From NCBI GenBank assembly GCA_002239105.1, contig MPNQ01000017.1, positions 378 through 64,377 of the forward strand: 64,000 nt of DNA, written 5' to 3'. This stretch comes from a marine group bacterium Sva0996 bin134. GTDB taxonomy: Bacteria > Actinomycetota > Acidimicrobiia > Acidimicrobiales > Bin134. Below, one piece after another: positions 35,459 through 41,572 of this stretch (the first letter of the stretch is position 1; each line of letters starts with the position of its first letter). The notes beneath the pieces are model-generated. The model had not been told where the DNA came from. It saw only the letters and a program-made list of their open reading frames with translations, and made no database searches. Position numbers and translations under genes: made by a program.

Positions 35459-37858
35459 TTAGCTGGTTGGGGTGGTCTTTGGGGGGTCAATGATGCGGTA
35501 GCCGGCGCGGGGCTCGGTGATGATGTAGGCGGGGCGGCAGGCGTCGTCGCCGAGCTTTTGGCGGAGGCGCTTGATGGCGCTGCGCACTGGTCCTGTGGGG
35601 TTGTCGAGGGTCTTCTTCCAAACGCGGCGCATGAGCTGGTCGCTGCTGAGAGTGCGGCCAGGGTTGGCGGCGAGCTCGCATAGCAGCCGGTACTCGGTGC
35701 CGGTGAGGGCGACTGTACGGCCGGAAACGGTGACGGTCCGGGCTGCGTAGTCGACGGTGAGGTTGCCGAGGGAGAACGTCCGGGGCGCGGCGCTCTCGGC
35801 CAGGGCGCCCCGGTGCAGGGCGGCCCGGACCCTTGCGAGCAACTCGGTGGGCGAGAACGGCTTGGCGACATAGTCGGCCGCTCCGGCTTGCATGAGGCTC
35901 ACAACGGCCTCGTCGTGGCCGCGGTCGACAATGAAGACCACTGGCGTATCGGCTTCGGCGCCCATAGCCAGCATCAGCTGCACGCTGGCTGCGTCGGGGT
36001 GGGCGAAACCGGCCAGCACCAGGTCGGGTTCTTTGGCATCTGTGCCGACCAGCGCCTCTTGGACATCGCCCGCGAACGCGAGCTCGAAACCGGCCGGGGT
36101 CAGGGTGTCGTTGATGTAGCGCTGGGTCAGCGGGTCGACGTCGATCACAAGAATCGCGGTTTGGCGGCGGCGGGCGGGCTGGCCGTCGATGGGAGCGACA
36201 GCGGATTCGACAGGCTGGTCGAGTGGCAGCGTGAACGAGACCCGAGTCTCGCCGGCGGTGCCGCCGTCAGCCCAGATGCGTCCGCCGTGCGCCTCAACTA
36301 TCCCCTTGCAGATCGCAAGGCCCAGCGCCGACCGTCCTGCGTCGCTGGGTGCTGCGCCGTCGTGACCTGGGCCATTGCCGATCAGCCGGGTGCCGGCGTC
36401 GGACTGCCCGGCTAGCAGTGCGGCAAGCCGCAAGGCGGGCTCGGCGGGTCGGTGCGCCACCGTAACCTTCCCGAAAGAGCCGTCGGGTACCACGGCGACG
36501 CTCACTGGCACCGAGCCCTCGGAGGCCCACAAGGCGTCGGCAATTATGCTGCGCAGCACTCGGGCGATTTCGCGCCGGTCGGCGGCCACGAGCAATATGC
36601 CCGGATCGGCGTCGACGGCGACTGGCAGGCCGTCGGCGCTGCTGAGCACGGCCTCGGCCGTGTCGCGGGCTAGGCCAACCAGGTCGGTGGGCGCGGGGGT
36701 GAGGGGCAGGGTACCGGTGTGGATGCGCGCCAAGTCGCCCATCTCGGCGATCAGGCTGCGTATGCGGTCGGCTTCCTCGTCGATGACCTGGGCCAGCTGG
36801 GCGCATTCGGCGGGGTGCAGGTCGCTGTGGGAGGAGAGCAGCGTCGCCGCGGCGCCCTTGACCGACACCAGCGGCGAGCGGAGCTCGTCGCGGGCCAGAC
36901 CCAAGACGTCGGCGCGAAGCCGATCGAGCTCTTCAAGCGGGGTGAGGTCTTGCACGGTGATCACGGCCGAGGAGACATTTCCGTCGGCGTCCCGGATAGG
37001 TGTTGCGTTCACCAGCACCGCGATGGCGGGTCCGCCGGGCAGGCTCAGCACGATCCGCTCGGCCCGTATGGCCGCTCCGCCGCGCAAGAGTTCAGCGACC
37101 GGGTTGTCGGCGAGAGAGTCCTCCCGGCCATCGGCCCGGCGGACGACGAGCTCTTGGGGCAACTCCCTAGGGGGGTCGTGCTCGCCCCGCACTGCTGCGT
37201 TGATGCGCTGCAACTCTCGGTTCACCAGAATTGTGTCGCCGAGCTCGGCGTCGATCACGAGCACCCCGACCGGCGCCGTGTCGATCAGGGTCTCCAAGTC
37301 TGTCCGGGCCCGTCGCTCGTCGCGGTAGCGGCGGGCGTTAGCTATGGCCAGCGCCGCCTGGGTGGCGAACATGGCGAGCGTTTCCTCGTCCTCGCCGGTG
37401 AACAATTCCTGCGAGGCCAGTTTGGACAAATAGATGCTGCCGACAGCCTCGCCCCTGCTCAGGATGGGGGCCACCAGGGACGGCCCGGTCTCTACGGGCA
37501 GCCGGAAATCCTGCAGGCCCAGCGACGAGAAGTAGTCGCCGAGATCTCGGACCCGAAGCGGTTCTTCGAGTTGGTTGAGGTGTTCCATGTAGGCCATGCC
37601 CTGCGGCAGGTCGTATAGGCCCTGCACTTCGTCGGGCGAGAGCCCCGACGTCACGAACGCCTCCAAATCGCCGGTCTGGTCAAAGACTGTGATGGCCCCG
37701 AACCGGGCCCCGGTCAGCTCGCGGGCACTGTCGGCGACCACTTGCAGCACTTCGCCGAAATCGAGTCCCTCGGCGAGGTGCAGGCTCGCCTCGTTCAGCC
37801 TCCGCAGCCGCCTACGAAGCGCCGCCGCCTCGCCGCGCTGGGCCGTTTCAGGTGTCAT
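35459..37858 (-). CDS. Fused GAF-PAS-histidine-kinase-like-receiver-like-OmpR/PhoB winged-helix protein, with substituted phospho-acceptor residues.
   Basis: 799-aa ORF. GAF spans roughly aa 25-175 and PAS roughly aa 190-310. The H-box position reads RDELRSPL (Asp codon at 36887-36889). The ATPase-like region ends in ALGLAICKGIVEAHGGRIW. The receiver reads ILVIDVDP...PDLVLAGF (Gly codon at 36008-36010 where the acceptor Asp is expected)...YVAKPF. The wHTH reads LTGTEYRLLCELAANPGRTLSSDQLMRRVW...GYRI. Confidence 0.85.
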   Translation of the reverse strand: MTPETAQRGEAAALRRRLRRLNEASLHLAEGLDFGEVLQVVADSARELTGARFGAITVFDQTGDLEAFVTSGLSPDEVQGLYDLPQGMAYMEHLNQLEEPLRVRDLGDYFSSLGLQDFRLPVETGPSLVAPILSRGEAVGSIYLSKLASQELFTGEDEETLAMFATQAALAIANARRYRDERRARTDLETLIDTAPVGVLVIDAELGDTILVNRELQRINAAVRGEHDPPRELPQELVVRRADGREDSLADNPVAELLRGGAAIRAERIVLSLPGGPAIAVLVNATPIRDADGNVSSAVITVQDLTPLEELDRLRADVLGLARDELRSPLVSVKGAAATLLSSHSDLHPAECAQLAQVIDEEADRIRSLIAEMGDLARIHTGTLPLTPAPTDLVGLARDTAEAVLSSADGLPVAVDADPGILLVAADRREIARVLRSIIADALWASEGSVPVSVAVVPDGSFGKVTVAHRPAEPALRLAALLAGQSDAGTRLIGNGPGHDGAAPSDAGRSALGLAICKGIVEAHGGRIWADGGTAGETRVSFTLPLDQPVESAVAPIDGQPARRRQTAILVIDVDPLTQRYINDTLTPAGFELAFAGDVQEALVGTDAKEPDLVLAGFAHPDAASVQLMLAMGAEADTPVVFIVDRGHDEAVVSLMQAGAADYVAKPFSPTELLARVRAALHRGALAESAAPRTFSLGNLTVDYAARTVTVSGRTVALTGTEYRLLCELAANPGRTLSSDQLMRRVWKKTLDNPTGPVRSAIKRLRQKLGDDACRPAYIITEPRAGYRIIDPPKTTPTS

Positions 37859-37991
37859 GTGCCGTCTAGCCCCGGCCCGGCCAGTAATCGGTGGCAGCGT
37901 GGCGCTCAGTCGCCCACGTCAACTCTGCCAAGCGGACAGCCATACCGCGCCTAACCGTATCACACAACCTTCCATAACCAGCACATAGGGG

Positions 37992-38146
37992 TTGACATGT
38001 TTAGGGACCAATGAGCCGGCTATATGACATAGAATATAACAATATTAGGTTATGTCGTGACGACTAGCGCACAAGATGACATACCACTATCTAATAACGA
38101 CAATTATTGATCGCTATTTGACACTGTCATACAATGTCGAATGTCA
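37992..38146. promoter_or_regulatory. AT-rich divergent control region with an array of TGACAT/ATGTCA hexamers.
   Basis: G+C is about 33% over 38021-38120 (hand count) in a roughly two-thirds-GC window. TGACAT occurs at 37993, 38025 and 38077. ATGTCG/ATGTCA occurs at 38052, 38134 and 38141. The palindrome TGACAcTGTCA is at 38119-38129. Confidence 0.6.
38107..38135 (+). promoter_or_regulatory. Candidate sigma-70-type promoter for the PAS-LuxR gene (leaderless geometry).
   Basis: -35 TTGATC (38107-12), a 17-nt spacer containing the TGACACTGTCA palindrome, and -10 TACAAT (38130-35). The ATG at 38141 lies 6 nt downstream of the -10. Confidence 0.4.
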
Positions 38147-38806
38147 CAGCTTTCCGCTCTGCCGCGGAAGGCCGTCAACAACGTCTCCAAGCCCGGGAGG
38201 GCACCAGTGAGCGCCCCTGTGGCACACGACGACATCTTCACGCTGTTGCAGATTGCCCGCTTCGGGGCGTGTGCTACCCGAAGCGACGGCACAGTGGTCT
38301 TCTGGAACCGCCGAGCCGAGCAGATCTGCGGAGTGTCGTCCTCCGACGCCCTAGGCCGGCACTATCGGGAGCTCATTCCCCAACGCGCCCTTCGCCCGTC
38401 CGGCGCCCAGGAGGCCTTTGAGGCCGAAGAGGTTGCTGTGCAGCCCCCGGTCCTGGTCGCCCCCCAGGCTGGCGACGTACTCACCGTGTACATCTTCGAC
38501 GACCACCACTCCGGGCCCGCGCCGGGTCCCGGCCAGCCGGCGGCCCACCTGTCCGAAGCGGAATTGCCCACACACGACGGCGGACCGCCACCCCTGATCG
38601 GCCAGCCTGCCCCGCAGCTTCTCACCCGGCGCGAGGCCCAGGTTCTTGAGATGATGGCGGAGGGGACCCCCACCGACAAGATCGCCTCGGAGCTGGGCAT
38701 CAGCGTCCACACCGTCCGCAACCACGTGCGCAACCTGCGCCGCAAGCTCAATGCCAGATCCAAACCCGAAGCAGTGGCCAACGCCTTCCGCCAAGGCCTC
38801 CTCTAA
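38141..38806 (+). CDS. PAS-domain LuxR-family transcriptional regulator.
   Basis: N-terminal PAS-like GACATRSDGTVVFWNRRAEQICGVSSSDALGRHY. C-terminal LuxR HTH LTRREAQVLEMMAEGTPTDKIASELGISVHTVRNHVRNLRRKL. Confidence 0.85.
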   Translation: MSQLSALPRKAVNNVSKPGRAPVSAPVAHDDIFTLLQIARFGACATRSDGTVVFWNRRAEQICGVSSSDALGRHYRELIPQRALRPSGAQEAFEAEEVAVQPPVLVAPQAGDVLTVYIFDDHHSGPAPGPGQPAAHLSEAELPTHDGGPPPLIGQPAPQLLTRREAQVLEMMAEGTPTDKIASELGISVHTVRNHVRNLRRKLNARSKPEAVANAFRQGLL

Positions 38807-39090: not shown

Positions 39091-40095
39091 ATGGACAGTG
39101 ATTTTGATTCGGCCCTGGCAGGGTTCATCCGGAGGCGTTTAGGAGAGGTAGGCGGACTTCGGGTAGAGGGCGATGCTCGGGCCACTGGGGGGCAGTCGCG
39201 GGAGAATTGGCCGTTCGACTTGTTTTGGGAAGATGGGGAGCAGTCGCATCACCGCCGCTTGTTCTTGCGGCGCGATCCGGTGGGCAGTGTGCTGGAGACC
39301 GACCGGCGGGTGGAGTACGAAGTGCTGCGGCGGCTGCACGACCAGCCGGTGCGGGCCCCCGAGGTGGTGTGGTTGGATGCCGATGGGTCGGAGCTGGGCC
39401 GTCCGGCGCTGGTCATGACCCGCTACGACGGGTTCAACGACCACTTCATTCTGCAAGGCGGCCACAGCCAGTTCGATGAGGACACCCGGGCGGGCATCGC
39501 CTCTCAGATGGTGGACTTGATGAACGAGATCCACGTCCTGGATTGGCGGGGCGCCGGGCTCCACGAAGTGCTGGTGGTGCCGGACGACCCGGCGACCGCG
39601 GCCATCGATGAATGGGCTGCGGTGATCGAACACCAGTCGCTGGAACCCCAACCGGTGCTGGCCATGATCGAGCAATGGTTGCGCCGCAACCGGCCGGCTC
39701 CCGGTGAGATCACCGTGGTTCACGGCGACATCAAGCCGGGCAATGTGCTGTTCGACGGCGACCGGGTGCACGTCTTGCTGGACTGGGAGACCGTCCACCT
39801 AGGCGATCCGACCGAAGACGTGGGGTGGGTGACCAATCCCCTACGCCGGGCAGAGCACCAGATTCCCGGGCGGTGGGAGGCAGACGACTTGGTGTCGGCC
39901 TATGAAGCCCGCACCGGGCAGACTGTGGATCGGGCCGCGCTGCGGTTCTGGCAGGTGCTGGCCAACTACAAGCTGGCGGCCATCGCCATGACCGGGGTGC
40001 GCAGCTTCTGCGACGGCCGCACCCAACGGGTGTGGTCAGGAGCCGGACTGCTGGGCAAAGTTCTGTTGGCCCAAACCGAGGGAGGGTTGCTGTGA
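39091..40095 (+). CDS. Phosphotransferase (APH/choline-kinase-like) family protein.
   Basis: VVHGDIKPGNVLFDGDRVHVLLDWETVHLGDPTEDVGW is the Brenner/APH catalytic-loop and DxD motif. Confidence 0.8.
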   Translation: MDSDFDSALAGFIRRRLGEVGGLRVEGDARATGGQSRENWPFDLFWEDGEQSHHRRLFLRRDPVGSVLETDRRVEYEVLRRLHDQPVRAPEVVWLDADGSELGRPALVMTRYDGFNDHFILQGGHSQFDEDTRAGIASQMVDLMNEIHVLDWRGAGLHEVLVVPDDPATAAIDEWAAVIEHQSLEPQPVLAMIEQWLRRNRPAPGEITVVHGDIKPGNVLFDGDRVHVLLDWETVHLGDPTEDVGWVTNPLRRAEHQIPGRWEADDLVSAYEARTGQTVDRAALRFWQVLANYKLAAIAMTGVRSFCDGRTQRVWSGAGLLGKVLLAQTEGGLL

Positions 40096-40462: not shown

Positions 40463-41572
40463 ATGCTCGGACCCCTAGACGACACTTTGTGGCATCAGAT
40501 CGCCGAGCCGTTTGAGCACGTCGGCACCTCGGACCCTCGCTTTTTCGACCGCTACTGGTTCGCCATCTACGACCCGGCTGGTCAGGGAGCGATGCAATTC
40601 ACCATGGGGTCGTACAACAACATGAACGTGCTCGACGGGGGGGTGGTGATGGTGCGGGGCGGAACCCAGCACAATCTGCGGGCGTCTCGGGCCCTGCGCC
40701 CCCGCCTAGAGCCCGAGGTCGGACCGATGCGGGTGGAGCCGACGGTGCCGCTGGAGGAACTGCGAGTAATCCTGGCCCCCGGCGATCACTCCATCGCCTG
40801 CGATCTGGTGTGGCGGGCCGAGCTGGCTCCGGAGATCGAGAAGCCCCACGTTGAGCGGGAGCGGGGCCGGGTGGCCCAGGATTATCAGCGGTTCAACCAG
40901 GTCGGCGTGGTGGACGGCTGGATCACTGTGGGCGACGAGGGTCTGACGGTGGAGGGCTGGTGGGGCGGTCGGGACCACTCCTGGGGGGTACGTCCATCTA
41001 TGGGGATCCCTGAACCGGTCACCGGCCCACCCCGCCAGCACAGTGAGGTCGGAACGCTGTTCTACTTTCTGTTCTTCTCCACCAATCGGTGTGCCGGCCA
41101 TGTGCAGATCATGGAGCGAGGACCCGAGCGGGTGTACCTCACCGGGCTCATCCGAGATCGGGACGCCCCCGACGTCGACCGCCACGTCACCCAGGCCGAT
41201 TTGTCATTGGAGTTCTTCGACGGCACCCGGCGGTTCTCGTCAGCCGACATGGCCGTTACCCTCGACGACGGCCGCTCGCTGCGGCTGCATTCGGCTCCGC
41301 TGGGCTCGGCGGTGGCCATGGCCGGACTGGGCTACAGCGGGGGCTGGAACGACGAGCTCGGCTTAGGGGTTTACCGAGGCGAGTCGTACCTAGAGCACGA
41401 GATCTGGGACGTCAGCCACTCCGCCGACGTGGTGCCCGCATCGGGCGAGATGTTCACCCCGATGCACCGCATCGCCCCGGTCACCGTCACCACCGACGAC
41501 CGCGACGAGACCGGCACCGGCAGCCTCACCATGATCGCCAACGGCCGCCTCCCGCAGTATGGGTTGGATTGA
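40463..41572 (+). CDS. Conserved hypothetical protein (369 aa).
   Basis: The listed ORF starts 3 nt after the previous stop and has good GC3. I do not recognise a domain. Confidence 0.6.
   Translation: MLGPLDDTLWHQIAEPFEHVGTSDPRFFDRYWFAIYDPAGQGAMQFTMGSYNNMNVLDGGVVMVRGGTQHNLRASRALRPRLEPEVGPMRVEPTVPLEELRVILAPGDHSIACDLVWRAELAPEIEKPHVERERGRVAQDYQRFNQVGVVDGWITVGDEGLTVEGWWGGRDHSWGVRPSMGIPEPVTGPPRQHSEVGTLFYFLFFSTNRCAGHVQIMERGPERVYLTGLIRDRDAPDVDRHVTQADLSLEFFDGTRRFSSADMAVTLDDGRSLRLHSAPLGSAVAMAGLGYSGGWNDELGLGVYRGESYLEHEIWDVSHSADVVPASGEMFTPMHRIAPVTVTTDDRDETGTGSLTMIANGRLPQYGLD

Follow-up and report, generated by a model that had tools for sequence, protein, structure and literature searches.

What remains for a two-component system to do when sensor, kinase, receiver and DNA-binding output share one polypeptide and both phospho-acceptor residues have been replaced? 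The question arises from a stretch of 64,000 nucleotides (the window, taken at its full length) of contig MPNQ01000017.1, assembly GCA_002239105.1, from the marine group bacterium Sva0996 bin134. An open reading frame (ORF) at 35459..37858 on the minus strand, which begins with ATG and runs uninterrupted, encodes a soluble protein of 799 amino acids (aa) in which GAF, PAS, DHp, CA, receiver (REC) and winged helix-turn-helix domains follow one another; according to the ORF translation, Pfam and an AlphaFold2 (AF2) model, it is a pseudo-kinase fused to a pseudo-response-regulator. An earlier note, made from the letters of this DNA alone, had proposed that the protein has abandoned His-Asp phosphotransfer, and its sequence bears this out, in that His at the donor site and Asp at the acceptor site are gone, as are the Mg/ATP-binding Asn of the N-box, the adenine-binding Asp of G1 and the metal-binding Asp of the receiver. 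As documented below, the absence of both acceptors characterizes an entire clade of closely related proteins, in which the gene is nonetheless kept intact.

Domain architecture and catalytic positions

All six domains score above their Pfam gathering cut-offs, in the order that had been read from the translation (GAF, PAS, HisKA, ATPase, receiver, OmpR/PhoB winged helix), and all lie on the minus strand. The GAF sensor domain spans residues 34-173 (37340..37759; Pfam envelope 34-172; GAF 51 bits, GAF_2 45 bits) and is followed by a PAS sensor domain at residues 187-308 (36935..37300; Pfam 187-304; PAS 25.7 bits, PAS_4 24.7 bits). The two-helix DHp (HisKA) domain lies at 36704..36925 (Pfam 319-382; 32.5 bits against a cut-off of 26.9) and the CA domain (HATPase_c), its ATP site destroyed, at 36215..36691 (Pfam 427-547; 31.7 bits against 26.4). 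The pseudo-receiver occupies 35819..36160 (Response_reg 569-678, 52.4 bits, with KdpE and MtrA alignments), and an OmpR/PhoB-type winged-helix DNA-binding domain closes the chain at 35489..35776 (Trans_reg_C 713-789, 67 bits). The receiver fold is thereby joined to Trans_reg_C as in OmpR/PhoB regulators. Among NCBIfam models matched to the C-terminal 230 residues, MtrA, KdpE, CseB and PhoB rank at the top; because all fall far below their equivalog cut-offs, the output is, as judged from its sequence, a generic OmpR/PhoB-type regulator, the orthologue of no named one.

The 799-aa protein has no transmembrane segment (maximum 19-aa hydropathy 1.46), and lacking any hydrophobic segment it is therefore taken to be cytoplasmic. 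The structure prediction that the earlier note had proposed forms all six folds, with a mean predicted local distance difference test score (pLDDT) of 75 and a predicted template-modelling score (pTM) of 0.50; its secondary structure agrees with the DHp and HATPase_c folds, and confidence is low only in the ATP lid (pLDDT <50 at 485-509) and the linkers. Continuous long helices at 155-193 and 306-342 join the sensors to the DHp. Foldseek matches to the model include dimeric sensor kinases (WalK, bacteriophytochromes, YF1), plant phytochromes, the regulators KdpE, PrrA and MtrA, and the ShkA structure 6qrj; these are kinases and regulators of the expected kinds, with none more specific. The protein, soluble by its sequence, is probably dimeric.

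The kinase core aligns with HK853 (E 2.6e-14, phmmer against PDB), with 'RDELRSPL' of the 799-aa protein opposite 'SHELRTPL', which sets D324 (codon GAC, read directly at 36887-36889, minus strand) in the column of the phospho-accepting His. This assignment, and those that follow, were also examined by column in a MAFFT alignment with the 120 best homologues, the 106 more distant of which served as a canonical set, in the numbering of the 799-aa protein. Every catalytic position is fixed, or almost fixed, in the canonical homologues; column 324 is His in 106/106 of them and Asp or Glu in 15/15 rows of the clade, in agreement with the Asp reported in the H-box. Likewise gone, by the HK853 alignment and the 106 canonical homologues alike, are the N-box and G1, as the earlier note had supposed. 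'SIIADA' stands opposite the HK853 N-box 'NLLNNG', with S437 and D441 (codon 36536-36538, minus strand) for the canonical N437 and N441, and G1 reads H469 (codon 36452-36454, minus strand), P471 and A472 for the canonical D469, G471 and G472. The G2 motif, described in that note as retained, is so only in part: 'LGLA' with G513 persists, but R509 and A511 replace the canonical G509 and G511, giving 'RSALGLA' as against 'GSGLGLA'. E325 is kept and, with Y663 and K666 of the receiver, completes the only residues of the catalytic set that are. The protein thus retains the DHp and HATPase_c folds of a HisKA-type kinase (by Pfam, the HK853 alignment and AF2) and lacks what a functional one requires, namely a phospho-accepting His in the H-box, occupied here by D324, and the ATP-binding motifs (N-box Asn, G1 DxGxG and G2 GxGxG). 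Absence of both the His and the ATP-binding residues places it within the pseudo-histidine kinases of Collins and Childers, in the form in which PMC12632262 cites that definition.

No substitute conserved His was found in the DHp of the clade. The pair in SSHSDLH, through which phosphotransfer had been thought possibly to persist, does not offer one, H344 being variable and position 348 being Asp in 13/14 sequences. As replacement acceptors H344, H348, H380 and all Asp residues of the receiver were considered and rejected, none being conserved at a catalytic position.

KdpE and MtrA match the entire regulator part (E 1e-30 to 5e-29, phmmer against PDB), and the alignments run 'PDLIILDLGLPD' opposite 'PDLVLAGFAHPD'. 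The KdpE segment 'DLIILDLGLPD', opposite 'DLVLAGFAHPD', puts G617 in the phospho-Asp column, in place of the canonical D617 (codon GGT, read directly at 36008-36010, minus strand), and in the model this residue ends beta3. Of the acidic pair, 'VEDE' lies opposite 'IDVD' and KdpE E8/D9 opposite D573/V574: D573 is kept, and the metal-binding D574 of canonical receivers has become V574 (36137-36139, minus strand). 'VLSARS' opposite 'FIVDRG' shows V644 (35927-35929, minus strand) at the Ser/Thr position, where the canonical residue is S644, and 'YLSKPF' opposite 'YVAKPF' shows the Lys retained as K666 (35861-35863, minus strand), which ends beta5 in the model and, like Y663, is invariant in the column table. 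The loss of the Asp, the Val at the Thr position and the retained Lys were all foreseen in the earlier reading. The phospho-Asp, complete acidic pair and Ser/Thr of a phosphorylation-dependent OmpR/PhoB regulator are accordingly missing; the Lys, the aromatic switch residue and the predicted beta5-alpha5 dimer face ('DYVAKPFSPTELLARV', column identity 0.88) are present. A PF00072 match without phosphotransfer residues is what defines a pseudo-receiver (PMC12632262, PMC4395418). Because the His, the N-box Asn, G1, part of G2, the Asp, the metal-binding Asp and the Ser/Thr have been replaced, phosphotransfer appears to have been lost completely, and we regard it as very nearly certain, on the residues now in place, that the 799-aa protein is incapable of it.

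The clade, its parent family and its partner gene

The search for orthologues suggested in the earlier note shows that the losses extend to the closest 14 clusters of homologues (P0001-P0014, 49-99% identity). Each of these is without both acceptors and carries Asp or Glu at the His column and Gly, Ser, Glu or Lys at the Asp column; every more distant homologue among the 120 best has both His and Asp. The 15 sequences of the clade are monophyletic in a neighbour-joining tree (bootstrap 100/100). A further member (L091, 802 aa, 65% identity) reads 'REEMSSLL' and 'LVLTGF', with Glu and Gly at the two sites, and deeper branches carry Glu and Cys (P0277) or Arg and Ser (P0281). The acidic residue at the former His site is therewith constant in the core clade, L091 and P0277, though not in P0281.

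No fewer than 17 distinct sequences of the clade, at 49-65% identity, have intact, full-length ORFs, and about 130 columns are invariant among 14 of them. Conservation is strongly patterned. Mean pairwise identity within the clade is 0.67 for the DHp, 0.66 for the winged helix, 0.57 for GAF, 0.56 for PAS, 0.56 for the receiver and 0.46 for the CA, the least conserved domain. By column identity, the best-kept segments include the helix that leaves the GAF domain toward the PAS (168-181), the PAS-to-DHp helix (308-318, 0.87), DHp alpha1 (0.83), receiver alpha1 (0.81), beta5-alpha5 (0.86-0.95, residues 662-677), the recognition helix (755-769, 0.89, with 760-770 among the best-kept stretches) and the wing (0.85). 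Even in the CA, 'IVEAHG' (520-525) is among the best-kept stretches; the ATP lid (470-510, 0.38) is the worst element of all, and receiver alpha2 and alpha3 stand at about 0.5. Three Asp residues of the receiver, D575, D612 and D662, do not vary within the clade. The proportion of G+C at third codon positions (GC3) is 0.81-0.90 in all six domains, comparable to that of neighbouring genes. As far as such alignments can tell, the clade is under purifying selection. A pseudogene, against which the earlier note had argued from the intact and well-biased frame, was rejected on the strength of clade-wide losses at 49-65% identity, the patterned conservation, the intact ORFs and the uniform GC3; an assembly artefact was rejected as well, given the conservation in the clade and the occurrence of the exact 799-aa sequence on 6 contigs from several public sources. 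In Ca. Poriferisodalis sp., two members without acceptors (WP_419923443.1 and WP_419923435.1, of the P0013 90%-identity cluster) reside on one 3.06-Mb contig, a pairing that points to a recent duplication.

The clade is embedded in a canonical family of proteins of about 800 aa with the same GAF-PAS-HisKA-HATPase_c-REC-Trans_reg_C order, which align with the 799-aa protein at 45-48% identity over 98% of its length and exceed 1,600 matches at E <1e-10 among the candidates scored. These relatives share its length, domain order, linker helices, 'CKGIVEAHGGRIW', 'DYVVKPFSPTEL' and recognition-helix motifs; they differ in keeping the H, N, D-x-G-x-G, G-x-G-x-G, DD, D and S/T residues (nearly) invariant. 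They are found in at least 8 phyla (loci L009-L088), at identities across phyla of 45-72%. Among the matches listed, metagenome-assembled genomes (MAGs) with canonical members belong to Dehalococcoidia, Caldilineaceae, Acidimicrobiia, Latescibacterota, Acidobacteriota, Gemmatimonadota, Binatia, Paracoccaceae and Gammaproteobacteria, there are often 2-3 copies per genome (as in CBDBDT010000002.1 and OZ242009.1), and the relatives listed by a scan of genome contigs are canonical, at no more than 45% identity. NCBI names the clade member P0013 'winged helix-turn-helix domain-containing protein', and no canonical match bears a name. The isolate labels of the family's MAGs are ones that we take to come from sponge-microbiome studies; together with the names Ca. 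Poriferisodalis and Ca. Spongiisociaceae, they suggest a habitat among sponge symbionts, and the spread across phyla suggests horizontal exchange of the regulator within that habitat.

Loss of catalytic residues is not confined to the clade, the parent family having undergone it repeatedly and independently. Among the genome loci retrieved, partial-loss paralogues include forms with only the Asp changed, to Asn (L043, L060), forms with the His replaced by Arg, Ser or Gln (L058, L061, L069) and one in which G1 and the Asp are lost (L063). A census took, as representatives at 50% identity, the 101 near-full-length sequences that rank highest against a profile of the clade, a selection that may somewhat inflate the percentages and renders them provisional. 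Of the 101, 47 are fully canonical, 39 are without the His, 20 without the Asp and 10 without both. The His alone is lost, with ATP site and Asp kept, in 7; both His and ATP site are lost, with the Asp kept, in 22; and of the 10 in which His and Asp are gone, the ATP site has gone too in 9. The degenerate forms are scattered over the family tree (including representatives P0277-P0424). By comparison, the His is missing from 0.9% of HisKA domains and the Asp from 2.0% of receivers (PMC12632262). The provisional contrast of 39% and 20% with 0.9% and 2.0% suggests that fused two-component systems may lose phosphotransfer far more easily than split ones.

What further sets the clade apart is a partner gene. 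Divergent from the hybrid gene, at 38141..38806 on the plus strand, lies an ORF of 221 codons that combines the N-terminal half of a PAS domain (33.6 bits) with a GerE/LuxR-type helix-turn-helix (68.6 bits). The PAS match is restricted to residues 34-81 and is followed by a variable middle rich in Pro and Ala. Its true start is likely GTG at 38207 rather than ATG at 38141, as indicated by GGGAGG at 38195-38201, six bases upstream, and by alignment of the partner proteins. A homologue of this PAS-LuxR gene adjoins the hybrid gene in 9/9 clade loci examined and in 0/82 canonical loci, where it was sought within 4-6 kb. It is divergently upstream, 253-349 bp away, at L001/L002, L003, L004, L005, L008, L089 and L091, and downstream, tail-to-tail, at the deep-branching L092; apart from the pair itself, clade neighbourhoods are entirely different. 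The partner has about 38 clusters of full-length homologues, the weakest of those examined (P0154, 37% identity) having no PAS match and occurring without a hybrid gene (L090). Next to the two-gene module in other genomes are genes for a phage-type integrase, transposases, toxin-antitoxin systems and McrBC (L004 3550-4686; L091 162-656 and 5897-7267; L089 6085-6685 and 8565-10675), neighbours from which it follows that the module often resides in variable or mobile regions.

The divergent intergenic region of the window (37859..38206, 50% GC against 66% for the window) holds candidate operator or -35-like elements. Five TGTCA/TGACA pentamers lie at 37993-37997, 38025-38029, 38077-38081, 38119-38123 and 38125-38129, and ATGACATA forms a direct repeat with a spacing of 52 nt. 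ATGTCA occurs 3 times in the region against 11 times in the other 63.7 kb, a copy overlapping the ATG at 38141 being excluded. Six clade intergenic regions together contain 27 TGTCA/TGACA copies against 5.0 +/- 2.1 in dinucleotide shuffles, none of 2000 of which reaches 27; the other divergent regions of the clade hold 3-6 copies each, and two loci added later, outside these statistics, 3-5 each. As background, these loci carry 0.2-0.6 copies per 300 nt; canonical genes, which show neither the array nor the PAS-LuxR neighbour, have 0.65 per 300 nt in their upstream sequence. Two of the sites keep a conserved distance from the luxR coding start, of about 85 and 127 nt. PhoB-type winged helices recognise the CTGTCAT half-site of Pho boxes. 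By its letters the TGTCA motif resembles such a half-site, and it also resembles a -35 hexamer; a simple promoter scan finds 3 promoter-like sites in 37859-38206 against 0.4 expected, two of which use ATGACA.

Proposed signalling without phosphotransfer

Since a conserved lineage keeps the gene intact, the protein is probably a sensor that switches genes by a change of shape alone. This notion, in which a fused two-component system has given rise to an allosteric transcription factor that works without phosphorylation, we consider on balance probable as a whole mechanism. The surfaces best preserved in the clade are those that live systems use for relay, docking (alpha1), dimerisation (beta5-alpha5) and DNA recognition, and conformational signalling driven by GAF and PAS, which the earlier note had presumed, would be consistent with the conservation of the linker helices, the DHp, alpha1 and beta5-alpha5. 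A ligand or redox input at GAF/PAS would be relayed through the coiled-coil helices to the DHp, much as in active kinases. The state of DHp and CA would then act on the tethered pseudo-receiver by docking and release at alpha1, taking the place of the phosphoryl group, and the docking state would decide whether receivers pair through alpha4-beta5-alpha5 and set two winged helices on DNA. Likely targets would be the TGTCA-type direct repeats of the shared intergenic region, with control of the protein's own gene and of the divergent PAS-LuxR gene. More speculatively, the acidic residue at the former His site may stabilise one state of the DHp.

Individual steps have precedents. DesK activates DesR without phosphorylation (PMC4251995), and OmpR/PhoB regulators dimerise via alpha4-beta5-alpha5, many pseudo-receivers being dimeric without phosphorylation (PMC12632262). 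For docking and release the precedent is ShkA of Caulobacter, whose pseudo-receiver (10.1101/675454; PMC12632262) docks on its own HisKA and locks the kinase until released by c-di-GMP, an intramolecular contact between pseudo-receiver and DHp that is itself regulatory; ShkA differs in having kinase activity, a true receiver in addition to the pseudo-receiver and no DNA-binding output. A DNA-binding domain binds more readily when tethered to a dimeric kinase, and an inhibitory interdomain contact or other control is needed (PMC11253607). The hybrid two-component systems (HTCS) of Bacteroides, e.g., the polysaccharide-utilisation regulators of B. thetaiotaomicron (PMC11253607), face this same problem, and they likewise place sensor, kinase, receiver and DNA-binding output on one polypeptide. 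They are, however, membrane proteins with a periplasmic sensor, an AraC-type output and active phosphotransfer, whereas the present protein is soluble, with GAF-PAS sensors, an OmpR/PhoB winged helix and no phosphotransfer residues; HTCS is the closest system in layout, to which the 799-aa protein is analogous without being a member.

Each dead half also has its counterparts. ChxR, HP1043/HsrA and actinomycete GlnR (PMC3960148, PMC5253667, PMC4395418, PMC12632262) join a receiver without catalytic residues to a winged helix and are active without phosphorylation, and pseudo-receivers at large keep beta5-alpha5 and diverge most in alpha2/alpha3 (PMC12632262), a pattern repeated in the clade. 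These regulators nevertheless stand alone at about 230 aa; here the pseudo-receiver is joined to a complete dead sensor kinase, the presumed source of regulation. In DivL of Caulobacter and in the kinase-related domain of plant phytochromes (PMC4211667, PMC12632262), a HisKA/HATPase-like fold without the His has been repurposed for conformational signalling or dimerisation, as appears to be the case here. In DivL a Tyr occupies the His site and the response regulator that it senses is a protein apart, whereas the acceptor is here fused and itself dead; neither DivL nor phytochrome carries its own receiver and DNA-binding domain.

It is in relation to such pseudo-kinases that the first competing explanation arises. 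The protein could be a modulator of the DivL/RetS kind, binding a canonical paralogue or the PAS-LuxR protein through DHp/CA or PAS surfaces and thereby titrating or scaffolding it. That the DHp is the best-conserved domain would fit, as would the multi-copy state of the family in many genomes among the matches listed, the frequency among paralogues of partial degenerates (His-less with Asp, Asp-less with kinase), the strict co-location of a PAS-containing partner and the documented action of pseudo-kinases by protein-protein contact (PMC12632262, PMC4211667). We hold it to be unlikely, in that the winged helix is conserved like the DHp and the very high conservation of the recognition helix would be unexpected in a pure protein binder; moreover, phmmer searches of the 64-kb window with each domain, though of limited sensitivity with single sequences, brought up no second ORF of the GAF, PAS, kinase, receiver or winged-helix type.

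The dead kinase core could instead be a permanent dimerisation platform, as in plant phytochromes (which are among the Foldseek matches), beneath a constitutive DNA binder whose GAF and PAS domains are remnants. Tethering to a dimeric DHp would by itself promote dimerisation of the DNA-binding domain, following the argument of PMC11253607, and the atypical OmpR-family members ChxR, HP1043 and GlnR are constitutive dimers (PMC3960148, PMC12632262). This reading is quite unlikely when set against what the clade has kept: GAF and PAS at full length and average conservation (0.57 and 0.56), connecting helices to the DHp that are among its most conserved parts and would be costly for dimerisation alone, and a receiver alpha1, dispensable for dimerisation, maintained at 0.81.

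A third alternative retains phosphorylation in a non-canonical form, on another His or Asp, on Ser or Thr by a Hanks-type or APH-like kinase, or by a histidine kinase acting in trans. Ser stands at the Asp column in 6/15 clade rows and Thr at the Ser/Thr column in 6/15, an APH-family phosphotransferase gene lies 1.2 kb away (39091-40095, plus strand), and the three Asp residues D575, D612 and D662 are clade-invariant. Yet positions 617 and 644, Ser and Thr in the other branch of the clade, are Gly and Val in the window protein; D662 and D575 are conserved in canonical receivers too, where they serve the structure or the acidic pocket; D612, which only the clade keeps invariant (canonical members mostly have His), sits at the start of beta3 and is no known phospho-site; with the Mg-binding D574 lost, the chemistry of Asp phosphorylation is unsupported; the His residues of SSHSDLH are not conserved; and the APH gene is absent beside other clade members examined. 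We judge such regulation highly improbable. Last, a functionless relic, whether a recent pseudogene or the product of neutral drift after duplication, would accord with the lost motifs and with an ATP lid that is poorly conserved and modelled as disordered, but it is effectively refuted by the conservation pattern, with intact frames in at least 17 sequences, some 130 invariant columns, uniform GC3 and a monophyletic clade accompanied by a conserved partner gene.

Several observations nevertheless weigh against an allosteric transcription factor as well. DNA binding, dimerisation and signal dependence are predictions, and the AF2 output, with its pTM of 0.50, gives no inter-domain contacts by which to judge the proposed docking of DHp and receiver. 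Position 617 varies freely in the clade (Gly, Ser, Glu, Lys or Cys), without a specific new role, and P0281 has Arg, a non-acidic residue, at the His column. The TGTCA motifs, finally, could instead be sites of the LuxR-type partner or, as ATGACA, -35-like elements.

Pseudo-kinases and pseudo-receivers are each known, but the means by which they are switched are for the most part obscure; for pseudo-receivers of bacteria, activation has been called 'a mystery' (PMC12632262). The literature searched yielded no account of a fused sensor-kinase-regulator that is dead in both halves and conserved as such, and nothing on this family or on Ca. Poriferisodalis. The present protein unites both dead halves with intact sensors and a DNA-binding output on one chain, and it has live relatives at about 47% identity and several partly dead lineages, which makes it a compact system for measuring the coupling of sensor to DHp and of DHp to receiver, and the effect on DNA binding, free of phosphorylation chemistry. 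Taking these strands together, we tentatively propose that the clade is an end-point of the passage from two-component system to one-component allosteric factor, in which the interface of DHp helix 1 and receiver alpha1 carries the signal and the acidic residue either fixes the DHp or engages the receiver Lys, a composite whose joint truth is rather doubtful. Were it true, the family of 101 representatives would preserve intermediate stages, and both the order of loss and the phosphorylation-free coupling would be directly testable.

Genomic surroundings

Cluster mates of neighbouring genes, at 90% identity or more, place the window in an Acidimicrobiia bacterium close to Ca. Poriferisocius. 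The module sits there among ordinary genes, with moaA (radical SAM and Mob_synth_C domains), moaC (33014-34550, plus strand) and a tRNA to one side of it and the APH-family gene to the other; neither moaA and moaC nor the APH-family gene is conserved beside other clade members. A convergent tRNA-Ala(CGC), confirmed by Rfam, lies 28 bp past the stop codon of the hybrid gene (35356-35430, plus strand). ARAGORN also called a permuted 'tmRNA' at 35337-35774, overlapping this tRNA and the 3' end of the hybrid gene; lacking Rfam tmRNA support, it was rejected as a probable false positive. Three genes from the hybrid gene, at 40463-41572 on the plus strand, is a conserved protein of 369 aa with no Pfam match, which belongs to a 90%-identity cluster of 149 members occurring in Acidimicrobiia and Ca. 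Poriferisocius MAGs.

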